Of a stretch of DNA of 64,000 bases, positions 1-64,000 are shown in pieces. The stretch's first letter is position 1. Each line of letters begins with the position of its first letter. Position numbers and translations under genes: made by a program. A model generated the notes under the pieces. The model had not been told where the DNA came from, did no database searches, and was given only the letters and a program-made list of their open reading frames with translations. Origin of the DNA: Escherichia phage vB_Eco_slurp01; sequence record LT603033, one strand, 5' to 3'.

Positions 1-129
1 GATGAAGGGGATCGTATTGTCCTAGCTGAAACAAAAGAAGAAGCAGAACAAATCTTCACTGATAAAAACGAAAATCCACATTGGATGGAAGAAGTCTGTG
101 ATGTTAAAAAAGGTACTTATATCGATTGA
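1..129 (+). CDS. 3' end of upstream gene (partial, hypothetical)
   Basis: Frame 1 open from window edge to TGA at 127..129. Confidence 0.4.
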   Translation, partial: DEGDRIVLAETKEEAEQIFTDKNENPHWMEEVCDVKKGTYID

Positions 130-248
130 CAGTACTGAATAATAGCAGTATTATGTTTTATATAAAAGGGAATGCAGTGAAAGGAAAGACAGCATAATCG
201 TACTCGTCACTGCGTTCCCGCCCTTTTAAATTAAATGAGGAATTAACT

Positions 249-557
249 ATGTTTCAAACTAACACTCAAGGTTTTGTAATCATCGATTTGAATCAAAACA
301 GCGGTTATTGGATGAAACCTACTGACGCATGTATGCAGTTTGATTTTTTAGGTTACAGGATTAGTGTAAGTACTGGTGCTTCTGTACTGAGAGGTGGTTG
401 TATCGTTGAACATCTGGTAACTGATCCAGAAGGTCGTGAGTATGAAATCGCAGGTTCAGTACAAGATGCCATTATGTTTGTATGTCAGCGTGAAATGAAT
501 GGTTCGAATTCAAATGCACTGACTCATGCTCTTTCTCAAGAAGTGGAGGTTCGTTAA
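249..557 (+). CDS. hypothetical protein
   Basis: ATG with GAGG RBS upstream; 102 aa; stop overlaps next start (TAATG). Confidence 0.65.
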   Translation: MFQTNTQGFVIIDLNQNSGYWMKPTDACMQFDFLGYRISVSTGASVLRGGCIVEHLVTDPEGREYEIAGSVQDAIMFVCQREMNGSNSNALTHALSQEVEVR

Positions 558-802
558 TGAAATACATTGTAGCAGTACTCGTCGCATTTCTACTCACTGC
601 ATGTGATGCTTCTACCAAAGAACGTACAAGTGATTTTGTTCTACCTGCTGAATTAAAAGAAGCAGGGTGTAAGATTTATCGTATGCAACAAGATGGTGCT
701 GGTGCAACTTTATACACTGTGTACTGTCCTAATGCAAATACAAGTACTGGATACACTAGCGGTAAAACACGAATCAACACTTCCGTAATTCATGGAGAAT
801 AA
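557..802 (+). CDS. putative lipoprotein
   Basis: N-terminal hydrophobic signal with LTAC lipobox-like motif; translational coupling. Confidence 0.65.
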   Translation: MKYIVAVLVAFLLTACDASTKERTSDFVLPAELKEAGCKIYRMQQDGAGATLYTVYCPNANTSTGYTSGKTRINTSVIHGE

Positions 803-804
803 CA

Positions 805-1173
805 ATGAGCCTTGATACAACACGTGCAGCAGATTTATTAACTCGTCTGAATGATGAAGAATATCTTGCTGAGATAAAGTACAAGCTTGACAAACTTGTT
901 CGAAGTGCTGAAGTAATTGAAGTTGAAGGTCACTTACCGATGGATCAATACCATAGGTTCAAGGAAGATATGGTTTATTATCCTAATGAAATTTGGATTG
1001 AGTGGCAACATTGGACTAACAAAACTCTTCGCATTGAAGGGTATTGTGTGAAGTATGAAAGTTCACCTGGTGATGTTACAAAAACTCTATCAATTTGGTG
1101 TACAAAAACAAATGAACTCGTTGAGGTGAATTTGAATTATATGAATGGATTCCGTTGGGGTGATGTTAAATGA
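805..1173 (+). CDS. hypothetical protein
   Basis: RBS GGAGAA upstream of ATG; 122 aa. Confidence 0.65.
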   Translation: MSLDTTRAADLLTRLNDEEYLAEIKYKLDKLVRSAEVIEVEGHLPMDQYHRFKEDMVYYPNEIWIEWQHWTNKTLRIEGYCVKYESSPGDVTKTLSIWCTKTNELVEVNLNYMNGFRWGDVK

Positions 1174-1445
1174 TTAAAAAACTCTTGACTGGAATCATTG
1201 TGTGCAGTACAATGTTTCTTACAGCATGTAATGATGACGGCAGGTTTAGTGCAAAAGACTTAGTTCGTCAGGATTGTACATTCACAGGTAAGTCTTTTAT
1301 TAACGAGTATGAAATATGTACACAATCAGGTCGTATCTGTGGTGGTTGGGAAAAACGTCAGGAGCGATTGTATGTATATGAATGCCCTGGACATCACAAC
1401 AAAGTACTAAGCACACACAAACTTGTTTATGATAAGGTTGAATAA
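1170..1445 (+). CDS. putative lipoprotein
   Basis: ATGA overlap; signal peptide with LTAC lipobox-like motif. Confidence 0.65.
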   Translation: MIKKLLTGIIVCSTMFLTACNDDGRFSAKDLVRQDCTFTGKSFINEYEICTQSGRICGGWEKRQERLYVYECPGHHNKVLSTHKLVYDKVE

Positions 1446-1660
1446 TGACTACCAATGAAATGATGCAGGTTATTTGGGATAAAGGTTGTGATATTAAAAT
1501 CACTAGTACTGATGTTCGTGTATTCAAAACTGAATATATGGAGTACTTGGACCTTGATACTTATAATAATATTGTATCAATTGAACACAAAGGTGCAGTA
1601 CTGGAAACCATTGACGTAGTACTCAAGAAAGCTACCGACCTATTAGGAGTGGCAGTGTGA
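1445..1660 (+). CDS. hypothetical protein
   Basis: TAATG coupling; 71 aa. Confidence 0.6.
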   Translation: MTTNEMMQVIWDKGCDIKITSTDVRVFKTEYMEYLDLDTYNNIVSIEHKGAVLETIDVVLKKATDLLGVAV

Positions 1661-1803
1661 ATAACAAAGAGTGGGAAGATTACCGCAAGAAGTGCAGGGA
1701 GTTTGATAAAGAACTTACTGGTACAGTGAATGCAGTAATGTGGGTATCTGTAATTATTGCAGTTCTTGCGTTGGGTGCTATTATTATTAATAAATTATTC
1801 TAA
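1657..1803 (+). CDS. possible small membrane protein (GTG start)
   Basis: 48-codon ORF with one hydrophobic helix filling gap between flanking genes; non-ATG start. Confidence 0.3.
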   Translation: MNNKEWEDYRKKCREFDKELTGTVNAVMWVSVIIAVLALGAIIINKLF

Positions 1804-1813
1804 GGCGAATATC

Positions 1814-2014
1814 ATGTTTACTTTATATCTCGCAGTAGTTCTCACCAATGGTGAAATCACTCGTACTATTGGTGAAGGTGTATATAAAACACCAGACCAG
1901 TGCTACTCTGCCACTCATTGGCCTCGCGATAGTGGGGATGAAACTCGCACTGAATTCAAATGCATGAAAGTAAAAGGTGATTTTGTTAACCTTAAGGTTA
2001 TCGAGGCGAAATAA
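1814..2014 (+). CDS. hypothetical protein
   Basis: ATG at 1814 preceded by AAGG; track ORF 1757 starts at TTG. Confidence 0.55.
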   Translation: MFTLYLAVVLTNGEITRTIGEGVYKTPDQCYSATHWPRDSGDETRTEFKCMKVKGDFVNLKVIEAK

Positions 2015-62520: not shown

Positions 62521-62721
62521 ATGTCTATCGCTCTCGCCCTGGTTGAAGTACTGAAAGAAGCTAAAGCCAACCTTATCGATGTACAGATTAAGGAATTGCA
62601 AAATGGTTTAATCGGCTGTACTTGTACCGCTGGTGGAGCGGCAGACTATCGAGAACACGAATCACTAGAATCGTTGGTCCGGTATCTTACAATCATCGTA
62701 GAAGATTGGAGAATCATCTAA
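62521..62721 (+). CDS. hypothetical protein
   Basis: Hairpin GCGGGGGAA-TAG-TTCTCCCGC upstream; 66 aa. Confidence 0.55.
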   Translation: MSIALALVEVLKEAKANLIDVQIKELQNGLIGCTCTAGGAADYREHESLESLVRYLTIIVEDWRII

Positions 62722-62738
62722 CAAAAAAGAATAAAAAA

Positions 62739-62771
62739 GGGATTGACTCCGGTCAGTCCCTTTGCTATTAT
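62739..62771 (+). promoter_or_regulatory. stem-loop/promoter hybrid (variant)
   Basis: GGGATTGACTCCGGTCAGTCCC + TTTGC + TATTAT. Confidence 0.55.
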
Positions 62772-62964
62772 ATACGCATAGACAAAAACTAGCCCACAGG
62801 GTGCATAGGTGTATCTAAAATATATAGTTAATAACGGTGAGTAACTATCTGCTGGTGGAGTGAAAACTATTAATAAAAAGTATTGACAAAGTATATCAGT
62901 ACTGCAATAATGTATCTCGTAGGGCGGCAATGGTGCGACGGTCCACAAAGTTAGGAGATTCAAA

Positions 62965-63297
62965 ATGAGTACTTCAATCGCTATCGTTAAAGCTTTCATC
63001 CGTACCAATGTTTCATCTGTATTCATCGACGGTCTGGATCGGGAAGTAGAATACTCAATCATTATCGCACAGACTGCAAACGGTGCTCGGTATATCCTTA
63101 ATGATAGTGAAGCAAATCACTACTACTTCACTAAAGCTACTGGCTTTAAACGCATCGATGCTGACGTAGTATACGCTAAGATGAATAAGCTGGTAGACAA
63201 GATTAACGCGAAAGGTACTATCGATTTACAGTACTGGACCGAAACCGATCCAGAATATGGATCTCACCGCTACCTGAATCCAGGTATTAAAATGTAA
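62965..63297 (+). CDS. hypothetical protein
   Basis: RBS TAGGAGA; 110 aa. Confidence 0.65.
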   Translation: MSTSIAIVKAFIRTNVSSVFIDGLDREVEYSIIIAQTANGARYILNDSEANHYYFTKATGFKRIDADVVYAKMNKLVDKINAKGTIDLQYWTETDPEYGSHRYLNPGIKM

Positions 63298-63386
63298 AAA
63301 GTACTTGCATAGTACTTAGAATCAAGTATAATGTTTTACATAGAGAGGGGGAAATGGTTCTCCCTCCTAAATTAAGGAGTTTTATC

Positions 63387-63788
63387 ATGACCTTCTCAAT
63401 CAATTCCTTCGCTGACGTTTTAGTACTGGCTCGGACTTTTGGTAAAGATGCACTGGAGTACGCTGTAAGTAATGGTACTATCCAACCGGAACAGTGCCGC
63501 ATCATTGGAAACTGCAAACGTTGGGCGGTATCCAATACTATTGCACTGGAAAACTTCCACGATGGCAACAATGAATATTCTGTTGATGTAGTATTCGAAG
63601 CCGTTGATCTCGGCGGTATCTATAATACTAACCTGAATGATGTGCGTATCGTTCGCACGGGGTTCGGTGCTTATGATGTATCTATTCGTGAAGCTATGAA
63701 CACCGGATACATTAGCAAGGACTTACTTGCTCACATCATGCAGCTGTGTACGGAACGTAACGAAGCACGCACTATCTTAGGACTGTAA
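63387..63788 (+). CDS. hypothetical protein
   Basis: RBS AAGGAG; 133 aa. Confidence 0.65.
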   Translation: MTFSINSFADVLVLARTFGKDALEYAVSNGTIQPEQCRIIGNCKRWAVSNTIALENFHDGNNEYSVDVVFEAVDLGGIYNTNLNDVRIVRTGFGAYDVSIREAMNTGYISKDLLAHIMQLCTERNEARTILGL

Positions 63789-63812
63789 GCGTTACACATC
63801 ACCAAACATCAT

Positions 63813-63832
63813 AGGCCGCCTTGTAGCGGCCT
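63813..63832 (+). terminator. GC-rich hairpin (weak terminator candidate)
   Basis: AGGCCGC-CTTGTA-GCGGCCT; no clear U-tract. Confidence 0.35.
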
Positions 63833-63856
63833 TAACTATATCAGGAGGGCATACAT

Positions 63857-64000
63857 ATGTTCTATACAGTATACAGCGTTCTAGGTACTATTGCAGGCGT
63901 ACATGATAACGTCAATGATGCTATGCGTACAGTACTGCAACAGGTTCCACTAAAGCCTAAGACCATTAAGCAGATGACAGCACGACTAACCAGGGCGACC
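63857..64000 (+). CDS. hypothetical protein (3'-truncated at window edge)
   Basis: Strong RBS AGGAGG; ORF open to end of window. Confidence 0.55.
   Translation, partial: MFYTVYSVLGTIAGVHDNVNDAMRTVLQQVPLKPKTIKQMTARLTRAT

Follow-up and report, generated by a model that had tools for sequence, protein, structure and literature searches.

The palindromic hexamer AGTACT is the commonest of all hexamers in a 64,000-nt stretch of the genome of Escherichia phage vB_Eco_slurp01 (sequence record LT603033; hereafter, the window), where it occurs 284 times instead of the roughly 22 occurrences expected. The same word dominates the complete genome of a close relative, is preserved between genomes more often than the sequence around it, carries graded and mirror-symmetric flanks, occupies fixed positions in a subset of early promoters and reappears with the same flanks in an unrelated lineage of temperate phages. 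On this basis we propose, tentatively and with a confidence somewhat short of even, that the AGTACT sites form a selected array of binding sites for a dimeric DNA-binding reader that would occupy phage DNA and gate its early promoters.

The window is 92-98% identical to the Asteriusvirus jumbo coliphages 121Q, PBECO4, G17, phAPEC6 and fEgEco12, and it aligns to positions 309,464-374,514 of fEgEco12, which correspond to the right end of that genome. It contains, in order, a block of small genes, an array of RCC1-repeat paralogs, about 20 small paralogous open reading frames (ORFs) and the right terminal repeat. The published length of the direct terminal repeat in fEgEco12 is 20,993 bp.

AGTACT is the commonest hexamer in the window and in the fEgEco12 genome

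A first-pass annotation, prepared from the letters of the window alone, had described AGTACT as strongly over-represented, and counting showed the excess to be stronger than it had noted. The hexamer ranks first among all 4,096 hexamers. Base composition alone predicts 21.7 occurrences, and 100 dinucleotide-preserving shuffles of the window yield a mean of 23.5 (standard deviation 4.7, maximum 36), with none of the 100 reaching the observed count. Markov models of order 1, 2 and 3 predict 22.5, 50.5 and 111.5 occurrences, respectively, the higher-order expectations being inflated because these models learn the sub-words of AGTACT itself; a first-order model built with the AGTACT sites masked predicts 17.4. 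The overall excess amounts to 12-16 times expectation. Among the 64 palindromic hexamers the enrichment of AGTACT is 12.6-fold, with the runner-up reaching only 2.1-fold. The top octamer of the window is CAGTACTG, with 63 copies versus about one expected, and it is the commonest instance of the preferred form of the sites, Y-AGTACT-R. A hand count from site positions gives a density of 3.4 sites per kb in positions 1-44,500 versus 6.7 per kb in positions 44,540-64,000, the terminal repeat. The array and the terminal repeat have these coordinates:

1..64000, no strand: array of 284 AGTACT sites (counts, shuffles, flank tally)
44540..64000, + strand: right direct terminal repeat, early-gene region, with 131 sites in 19.5 kb; aligns to fEgEco12 353,636-374,514

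The bias extends to the whole fEgEco12 genome, where AGTACT is again the top hexamer (1,115 occurrences versus 98 expected, 11-fold). No 10-kb bin of this genome contains fewer than 11 sites, the bins of the terminal repeat contain 60-75, and 84% of all sites lie inside genes. Other palindromes show the opposite behavior. In the window, 22 palindromic hexamers have zero copies, and in the 375 kb of fEgEco12 a total of 25 are absent, including CCATGG (56 expected), TGGCCA (52) and GCATGC (50); the tetramer GCGC is also missing from fEgEco12 (0 copies versus 258 expected), and GATC is found at 0.59 times its expectation. Such purging of palindromes indicates that the phage is under heavy restriction pressure, yet one palindrome has been pushed the opposite way. 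Among other tetramers of the window, CCAG (1.9-fold) and CTGG (1.7-fold) are high and CTAG (0.53-fold) is low, which is the signature of E. coli very-short-patch repair.

AGTACT sites have symmetric, graded flanks

Across the 284 sites, the base preceding the hexamer is C in 127 cases, T in 71, A in 59 and G in 27, and the base following it is G in 136 cases, A in 74, T in 55 and C in 19. Further out, at a distance of 3-4 bases, T is favored on the upstream side and A on the downstream side, with no information beyond; the flank consensus is both mirror-symmetric and graded: TTnC-AGTACT-GnAA. Restricting the tally to the 89 non-coding sites gives the same flank pattern, with 38 instances of C and only 5 of G immediately before the hexamer. 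The form GAGTACTC has no copies in the window and 6 in fEgEco12, versus 221 copies of CAGTACTG in the latter genome. One-mismatch variants of the hexamer are mildly enriched in the window (1.2- to 2.7-fold), the sole low pair being AGGACT/AGTCCT at 0.5-fold.

The symmetry of core and flanks, which sets these sites apart from oriented signals such as Chi, KOPS or uptake sequences, points to a reader that is itself two-fold symmetric and recognizes AGTACT on double-stranded DNA, and the graded flanks together with the tolerated variants suggest an affinity landscape rather than an all-or-none enzyme site. Spacing between sites is near random, except for pairs of sites in promoters, which lie 19-24 bp apart, and for a single tandem repeat of 60 bp. 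No helical periodicity was seen in site spacing, and preferred spacing or helical phasing was rejected as an organizing principle, since nothing was found beyond these two exceptions. Along genes, no positional preference was detected except for a dip at ribosome-binding sites. Longer conserved units, as would be expected of dispersed repeats of the REP or MITE kind, are confined to the 60-bp repeats, a set of 53-bp repeats and the promoter cassettes described below, and the bulk of AGTACT sites have unrelated surroundings.

AGTACT sites are preserved between related genomes

When the window is compared with fEgEco12 (90% identity where aligned), 211 of the 251 aligned sites (84%) are intact, versus 66% of control hexamers located 10-40 bp away (binomial p = 2e-10). 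Base by base, the sites are 91-96% identical and their flanks about 90%. Gain and loss of sites balance, with 40 sites found only in the window and 31 only in fEgEco12, and they proceed through many different substitutions, with no excess at the C of the motif. At larger distances, the orthologous core genes of fEgEco12 and Klebsiella phage RaK2 (67% amino-acid identity; 70 and 80 sites, respectively) share 27 alignment columns bearing a site, and those of fEgEco12 and Yersinia phage fHe-Yen9-04 (57% identity; 72 and 83 sites) share 12, where about 0.2 shared columns per comparison are expected by chance. Core-gene density is about 2 sites per kb in all three phages alike. These alignments show AGTACT sites to be under purifying selection, and the combination of conserved density with turnover of positions is the behavior of many weakly selected, interchangeable sites. 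The first-pass annotation had argued that enrichment of a palindrome in a phage genome implies a function, a view now supported by the purging of other palindromes, by selection on the sites, by their stable density across genera and by their effect on codons and proteins.

Codon usage does not account for the excess

Using a greedy gene model of the window to separate coding from non-coding DNA, 197 of the 284 sites fall inside coding sequence, in genes of both strands and in all three frames: 84 encode Ser-Thr, 40 encode [Q/K/E]-Tyr and 73 encode x-Val-Leu; 89 sites were treated as non-coding in the flank tally. Shuffling synonymous codons within genes yields 56.5 +/- 6.5 sites (maximum 74) and shuffling codon order yields 25.4 +/- 4.9, which places the 197 coding sites at a 3.5- to 7.8-fold excess, past the 2-fold limit that the first-pass annotation had set for its claim to fall. 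Non-coding DNA is twice as dense in sites as coding DNA (8.0 versus 3.7 per kb).

AGTACT leaves its mark on codon choice as well as on the proteins themselves. In fEgEco12, AGT-ACT spells 410 of 786 Ser-Thr dipeptides (52%) where codon usage predicts 121, and Ser-Thr is the most over-represented dipeptide of the proteome (1.47-fold), with Thr-Ser at 0.97-fold. Four of the six tRNA genes located at 290,892-295,140 of fEgEco12 are for serine or threonine (Ser-UGA, Ser-GCU and two Thr-UGU, the others being Met and Asn), a set that matches the extra demand for Ser and Thr codons created by AGTACT.

An origin of the excess in codon usage, in Ser-Thr and Val-Leu dipeptides, in repeated promoter cassettes or in the avoidance of other words would draw on the fact that AGT, ACT, GTA and CTN are common codons and that part of the sites do lie within repeated promoter cassettes and tandem repeats. 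We give this explanation almost no credence. Codon shuffles reach only 25-57 of the 197 coding sites, flank information is close to zero past 4 bases on either side, which places most sites outside longer repeats, and the core genes of three genera maintain their density with sites at mostly different positions. The first-pass annotation had itself allowed for a partial side effect of codon pairs; this caveat can be set aside, because non-coding DNA is denser in sites and retains the flank symmetry. The codon and dipeptide artefact was accordingly rejected on the strength of the shuffles and of the non-coding density.

AGTACT enrichment follows the enterobacterial Rak2-like clade

Occurrence of AGTACT was assessed in unbiased stretches of more distant phages (50 kb each, and 39 kb lying outside an acquired patch in the Vequintavirinae coliphage W70) and of the host (100 kb of E. 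coli K-12), with the following results:

Klebsiella phage RaK2, 50 kb: 114 AGTACT versus 10.8 expected
Yersinia phage fHe-Yen9-04, 50 kb: 111 versus 13.3 expected
Pseudomonas phage PA5oct, 50 kb: 3 versus 14.3 expected (p = 4e-4)
Vequintavirinae coliphage W70 outside the acquired patch, 39 kb: 0 versus 8.7 expected (p = 2e-4)
E. coli K-12, 100 kb: 9 versus 9.6 expected
E. coli A+T-rich O-antigen cluster, 6.7 kb: 1 versus 1.1 expected

The trait extends across the Rak2-like phages of enterobacteria; PA5oct and W70 are depleted in the word, and E. coli is neutral. That the excess might be common to A+T-rich DNA of enterobacteria in general was considered and rejected, the E. coli O-antigen cluster not being enriched. 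AGTACT is some 30 times denser in the phage DNA than in that of E. coli (3-7 versus 0.09 per kb).

All 8 AGTACT instances of the W70 sample lie inside a 5.4-kb patch shared with the early region of the jumbo phages. This patch of early genes and promoters (W70 positions about 19,900-25,300) is homologous to positions about 46,700-62,700 of the window at 69-88% identity, and in one of its promoters AGCGCT and AGTGCT stand in place of two AGTACT. Within the patch, 3 sites are kept versus 35% of controls, a comparison that involves only 7 aligned sites. Approximately 150 further coliphage records, including Phapecoctavirus and Justusliebigvirus, match the early region of the terminal repeat.

An unrelated lineage of temperate phages shares the motif

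Viral contigs were scanned for two instances of CAGTACTG at most 30 bp apart. The scan recovers 121Q, RaK2 and GAP32, plus a group of contigs of 25-34 kb with 40-42% G+C. In this second lineage AGTACT is again the commonest hexamer, at 12-16 times expectation, and the same palindromes are purged. The flanks also coincide, with C preceding the hexamer in 60% of cases and G in 7%, and with T favored 3-4 bases upstream. Non-coding DNA is once more denser than coding DNA (6.2 versus 3.8 sites per kb), and 92 of 161 Ser-Thr dipeptides are spelled AGT-ACT (17.7 expected), Ser-Thr being over-represented 1.52-fold and Thr-Ser standing at 0.95-fold.

Its members, 31-34 kb in length, constitute a previously undescribed family of temperate Enterobacteriaceae phages. 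Their genes include those for a large serine recombinase, a gpA terminase of the lambda type and a capsid of the HK97 type, and related prophages are present in Phytobacter diazotrophicus and Leclercia sp. The lineage was not found among the isolate phages or the complete E. coli genomes searched. That two unrelated lineages follow the same rule in the same detail points to a common reader, which may be encoded by the host or by a small mobile gene below detection; alternatively, one lineage may have copied the tag of the other.

The G+C content of the second lineage (40-42%) differs from that of the host flanks (53-57%), and its cargo region encodes a helicase, an HNH nuclease, a GTPase, a DUF1493 protein and an RnlB-like antitoxin. 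An enrichment of GGCGGT in these phages was considered as a possible RfaH ops site and rejected, being explained by Gly-Gly codons. The closest isolate by terminase, Escherichia phage DCP80 (PQ671644.1, positions 1-50,000), is not enriched in AGTACT. This record joins a gpA-terminase structural module to T-even genes, with motA, ndd and rIIA in two opposed copies, and looks like a chimeric assembly.

AGTACT occupies fixed positions in a subset of early promoters

In the terminal repeat, a sigma-70 promoter with AGTACT precedes nearly every small gene. The repeat contains 106 promoter-like sites, versus 67 +/- 8 in shuffled sequence, and ten of them are perfect 12-of-12 matches. In 8 of these 10, AGTACT lies in the spacer one base short of TATAAT, and in a ninth it overlaps the -35 box; among promoters of the TTGCAA type, it overlaps the -35 box in 7 of 9. 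With a strict promoter pattern applied to the window, AGTACT starts 7-8 nt before the -10 box in 20 of 63 promoter-like sites, where 0.28 are expected per offset. An additional AGTACT is often found near -60, as in TTCAGTACTGAAAACTATTTTTAAAAAGTACTTGCA. Three layouts recur:

57782..57809, + strand: type A early promoter, TTGACA, 9 nt, AGTACT (57797-57802), G, TATAAT
First hexamer starting at 44884, 54156, 54738, 56473, 58052 and 60913: further type A promoters, and at 58483 one with a 17-nt spacer
47926..47958, + strand: type B early promoter, AAAAAGTACTTGCAA, 16 nt, TATAAT, with AGTACT overlapping the first T of the -35 TTGCAA
TTGCAA starting at 46232, 46692, 47373, 48988, 51393 and 61797: further type B promoters
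51626..51661, + strand: type C early promoter, AGTACT-A-TTGACA, 9 nt, AGTACT-GG-CATAAT, with its two sites 22 bp apart
54460/54482 and 62109/62131: further type C copies

The contexts that the first-pass annotation had pointed out do exist: AGTACTGTATAAT is found within promoter spacers, AAAGTACTTGCAA adjoins -35 boxes, GCCAGTACT...ACTGGC forms terminator hairpins separating RCC1 paralogs, and further sites populate the non-coding island at 44.5-46.2 kb. A fixed promoter position applies only to a subset of sites; about 70% of those in the window (197 of 284) lie inside genes.

Repeats, hairpins and the genome terminus

Outside the promoters, several structured elements of the window carry AGTACT:

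44304..44519, + strand: four exact tandem 60-bp repeats, each with GATTCAGTACTGAT (sites at 44321, 44381, 44441 and 44501)
45049..45082, + strand: inverted repeat CAGTACTGATATTAAC...GTGTCAGTACTG in the non-coding island, with one site per arm (45050 and 45076)
46062..46173, + strand: three direct repeats of about 53 bp (sites at 46062/46075, 46115/46128 and 46168)
35835..35853, - strand: terminator hairpin GCCAGTACTTGATACTGGC with a T-run after it, separating RCC1-repeat paralogs
27288, 28508, 37093 and 38274: similar RCC1 terminator hairpins
29750..29768, - strand: twin-site hairpin GCCAGTACTCAGTACTGGC in an RCC1 intergenic region (sites at 29753 and 29760)

The 60-bp repeats end about 20 bp before the left-terminus sequence AGTAGGCAGAGG, and extended sites of the form GATTCAGTACTG cluster just upstream of the left terminus, with three of them within 100 bp in fEgEco12. 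An ORF also runs through these repeats, with DSVLISIDKIAQECTEMCVN as its iterated peptide; rather than a gene, the repeats could be a terminase or end-recognition element. The 53-bp repeats lie upstream of the first promoter and gene of the terminal repeat. Chi, the octamer GCTGGTGG, is the most over-represented octamer of fEgEco12 without motif sub-words, with 24 copies on the + strand, where 1.7 are expected, and a further 12 on the - strand; the terminal repeat accounts for ten of the + copies, an arrangement that looks like a protection of the genome ends against RecBCD.

Between the RCC1 paralogs, AGTACT makes up the hairpin stems of the terminators. These paralogs form a tandem array of twelve at 24916-39443 (- strand), each followed by a near-identical cassette that comprises, on the minus strand, the terminator hairpin, then TATTAAATATAGTATAATGAATAAAGGAGG and then ATGTTACCTTTTGG. 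The cassette looks like a late-type promoter and ribosome-binding site copied along with the gene. Between this array and the terminal repeat, at 39528-44123, are about 20 tandem paralogous ORFs of 60-88 amino acids that typically start with MNKEHKEFY and end with LLIYRY, and for which the annotation of relatives gives no Pfam match.

A binding-site array as the favored interpretation

The first-pass annotation had listed binding, modification, packaging and structure as possible functions of AGTACT. Graded symmetric flanks and fixed promoter positions favor a binding protein over an enzyme target, and they narrow this list toward binding without settling it. In the mechanism that we envisage, a two-fold symmetric, probably dimeric, sequence-specific factor would read AGTACT on double-stranded DNA, with TTC-AGTACT-GAA as its best site and with G just before or C just after the hexamer disfavored. 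The likeliest type of reader would be a nucleoid-associated or global-regulator protein, rather than a strict-site enzyme. About 3 sites per kb throughout the genome, and 6-7 per kb in the terminal repeat, would mark phage DNA over E. coli DNA, and the terminal repeat would presumably be the first DNA to enter the cell, because it is present at both genome ends and contains the early-gene promoters. A reader accumulating or recruited during infection could coat, organize or shield phage DNA selectively, and it could also gate early transcription through the sites just upstream of the -10 box, against the -35 box and near -60 of sigma-70 promoters. The enrichment, the selection, the symmetry and grading of the flanks, the promoter geometry, the distribution in the clade and the second lineage are demonstrated; the identity of the reader as a binding protein, its role and its coding by the phage, the host or a mobile gene are what we infer from these patterns.

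Several observations weigh against a binding-site array. Pfam scans of 20 terminal-repeat proteins and of about 30 ORFs of the second lineage revealed no DNA-binding domain, and in the former set the sole recognizable features were a DksA/TraR zinc finger and a kinase-like fold. A palindrome of 6-8 bp is the typical footprint of a type II methyltransferase or nuclease and is short for a helix-turn-helix dimer, and the spacing of sites shows neither helical phasing nor a cooperative pattern. Duplication of promoter cassettes from a common ancestor, or simply the sequence space left free in spacers, could explain part of the promoter positions, and the flank preference could in principle stem from avoidance of SlmA-type sites rather than from the affinity of the reader itself. 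Finally, the jumbo phages and the second lineage share only a lysozyme in tblastn, tblastx and phmmer searches, the one marginal phmmer match between them being antisense to an HNH gene. With no shared protein to account for the motif in both lineages, a host-encoded or horizontally mobile reader is a serious possibility.

A more specific version of the binding-site reading, which we consider unlikely though worth stating, is that AGTACT density serves as an identity barcode, whereby the reader would tell phage from host DNA by motif density alone, with no base modification, in order to shield, organize or license the phage chromosome. If true, such a barcode could serve, for instance, while host DNA is degraded for nucleotides, and the temperate lineage would share it through a host-encoded or mobile reader, or as prophage mimicry to survive or exploit jumbo phage infections.

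Alternative explanations

AGTACT could instead be the target of a DNA-modifying enzyme, such as an orphan methyltransferase, that protects or marks phage DNA, its targets having been multiplied by selection and most of all in the terminal repeat. This remains a live rival, if on balance a rather improbable one, because a restriction-exposed genome that tolerates 1,000 ScaI sites needs explaining: 25 palindromes have been purged from fEgEco12, yet more than 1,000 ScaI/Eco255I sites are tolerated, which suggests that these are protected. A strict 6-bp palindrome is moreover the classic type II footprint, an orphan viral AGTACT methylase without partner nuclease has been reported in mollivirus, and a mark already present on virion DNA would act at entry, with no need for new protein synthesis. 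The phage does encode a C5 methylase (g455 in fEgEco12, conserved in 121Q, GAP32 and RaK2) and a Dam-family methylase (g162), and RaK2 DNA has been reported to resist methylation-sensitive enzymes. Published bisulfite data, however, locate the m5C of RaK2 at CpG, a dinucleotide that AGTACT does not contain, and the C5 methylase was rejected as the writer of AGTACT for this reason in spite of its conservation in the clade. The family of the Dam-like enzyme is present in more than 1,500 phage records, including Stx-converting and other coliphages, and the AGTACT trait has been reported in none of them, a result that is uninformative as to the writer. Pfam scans detected no methylase among the 20 terminal-repeat proteins or the approximately 30 second-lineage ORFs. 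DNA of fEgEco12 is cut as predicted by ten enzymes, though none of these probes AGTACT. A type II target should be indifferent to its flanks, but C precedes 45-60% of sites and G 7-10% across both lineages; such graded flanks and the enriched one-mismatch variants suit an affinity landscape better than an all-or-none site, and the C of the motif shows no surplus of substitutions. A mutational or gene-conversion drive, such as a very-short-patch-like repair tied to a methylase, of the kind proposed for the cyanobacterial HIP1 palindrome, would likewise draw on the C5 methylase conserved in Asteriusvirus, GAP32 and RaK2, as well as on the very-short-patch signature of the window and on the appearance of sites wherever sequence is free to vary. 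We deem it very unlikely. Conversion should deplete precursor words, and very-short-patch-like conversion was rejected on finding them undepleted, with AGTATT/AATACT at 1.5-fold and the other variants, save AGGACT/AGTCCT, also in excess; sites come and go between close relatives by way of many different substitutions; CpG is where the methylase acts; the prophage lineage has the same pattern and no such enzyme was found in its approximately 30 ORFs; and host DNA and other phages of the same hosts are unaffected.

A role in replication, recombination or packaging, with the sites used for priming or nicking of either strand, as recombination hotspots, or as signals for a terminase or for DNA condensation, would fit the even scatter of about one site per 340 bp, which is of the order of priming or nicking spacings, the clustering of extended sites right beside the genome terminus, and the presence of T4-type primase, recombination and packaging genes in the phage. 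It is nonetheless quite unlikely: the second lineage has a lambda-type gpA terminase and no T4-type replication genes, yet the same motif and flanks; a terminase signal in 1,000 copies would be harmful; and known primase sites are trinucleotides that are not known to be enriched at such a scale. A final proposal holds that the sites are decoys for the nucleoid-occlusion protein SlmA, phage DNA thereby blocking cell division. The 12-bp SlmA site GTGAGTACTCAC has an identical core hexamer, cells infected with the Asteriusvirus Sharanji form filaments, and the Pseudomonas relative PA5oct lacks the enrichment; SlmA is not known from Pseudomonas. The proposal is highly improbable on account of the flanks. 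The published site is a 12-bp palindrome with G at position 1, T at 2, a purine at 3, A at 4, G at 5 and a pyrimidine at 6 (PMC3020112), but position 3 is C or T in 70% of phage sites, with G depleted two-fold, and positions 1-2 show no enrichment of GT. In 354 kb, GT.AG..CT.AC is matched only 3 times, and GTGAGTACTCAC has 0 copies. The decoy model was rejected, as positions 4-6 alone match, the flanks run counter to the specificity published for SlmA and no complete site is present. Half-site resemblances to LexA, TrpR, ArgR, Lrp and YbaB were also dropped, since none fits the geometry.

Significance and comparison with known systems

Phage genomics treats short palindromes as liabilities, and here one of them has become the commonest hexamer of a 350-kb genome, where it rewrites half of the Ser-Thr dipeptides; the trait is held across at least three jumbo-phage genera and an unrelated temperate lineage. 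It may bear on how phages with neither modified bases nor a protein shell tell their own DNA from that of the host, and on the control of a very large early regulon in jumbo phages. AGTACT also provides a simple marker by which related sequences can be recognized in metagenomes and patches of horizontal origin, like that of W70, can be spotted. The literature searched contained no paper linking AGTACT to jumbo phages of this clade, the apparent mentions of ScaI in it referring to the SCAI culture medium, and the genome papers of the clade describe promoters and methylases and do not describe the AGTACT bias.

A reader covering phage DNA has precedents. TF1 of SPO1 recognizes hydroxymethyluracil DNA and p6 of phi29 recognizes a bendability pattern, and both cover phage DNA and early promoters. 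The proposed reader would resemble them in being abundant, in covering phage and not host DNA, and in preferring and controlling early promoters, and it would differ in telling the two DNAs apart by how densely a plain hexamer is placed; no homologue of TF1 or p6 was found, though none was sought. Chi, KOPS, matS and SlmA sites are likewise over-represented short words with a dedicated reader protein; Chi is itself enriched 14-fold in the jumbo phage, and the SlmA site is built on the same AGTACT core. Chi and KOPS, however, are asymmetric words with a strand orientation, whereas AGTACT is symmetric; matS and SlmA sites measure 12-13 bp and occur in tens of copies, compared with 6-8 bp and thousands of copies for AGTACT. 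The ScaI/Eco255I site and the target of the mollivirus methylase are the identical 6-bp palindrome, the latter in a virus that methylates without a partner nuclease; enrichment of the site has not been described there, and no AGTACT-specific enzyme has been identified in the jumbo phages.

The closest parallel is HIP1 (GCGATCGC) of cyanobacteria, a short palindrome that outnumbers every other word of the same length and whose function is not yet settled. HIP1 is scattered over all coding frames and non-coding DNA, is kept in orthologues more than its surroundings, and has been reported to co-occur with methyltransferases whose targets lie within the palindrome. AGTACT resembles it in being the top hexamer with an at least 10-fold excess genome-wide, in its presence in all frames and in non-coding DNA outside any longer repeat, and in the conservation of its sites beyond that of their surroundings, seen both in intact sites and in shared alignment columns. 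It differs in its bearer, which is a clade of virulent jumbo phages and a temperate lineage in a host whose genome is not enriched; in the motif, which is A+T-rich, 6 bp long and bordered by graded flanks, with 25 other palindromes wholly lost; and perhaps in its relation to methylases, the C5 methylase acting at CpG according to the RaK2 bisulfite data and no methylase having been found in about 30 ORFs of the second lineage. HIP1 is the nearest known phenomenon, from which the present case is set apart by a motif borne by phages, in a host without the enrichment and alongside the near-total purging of other palindromes.

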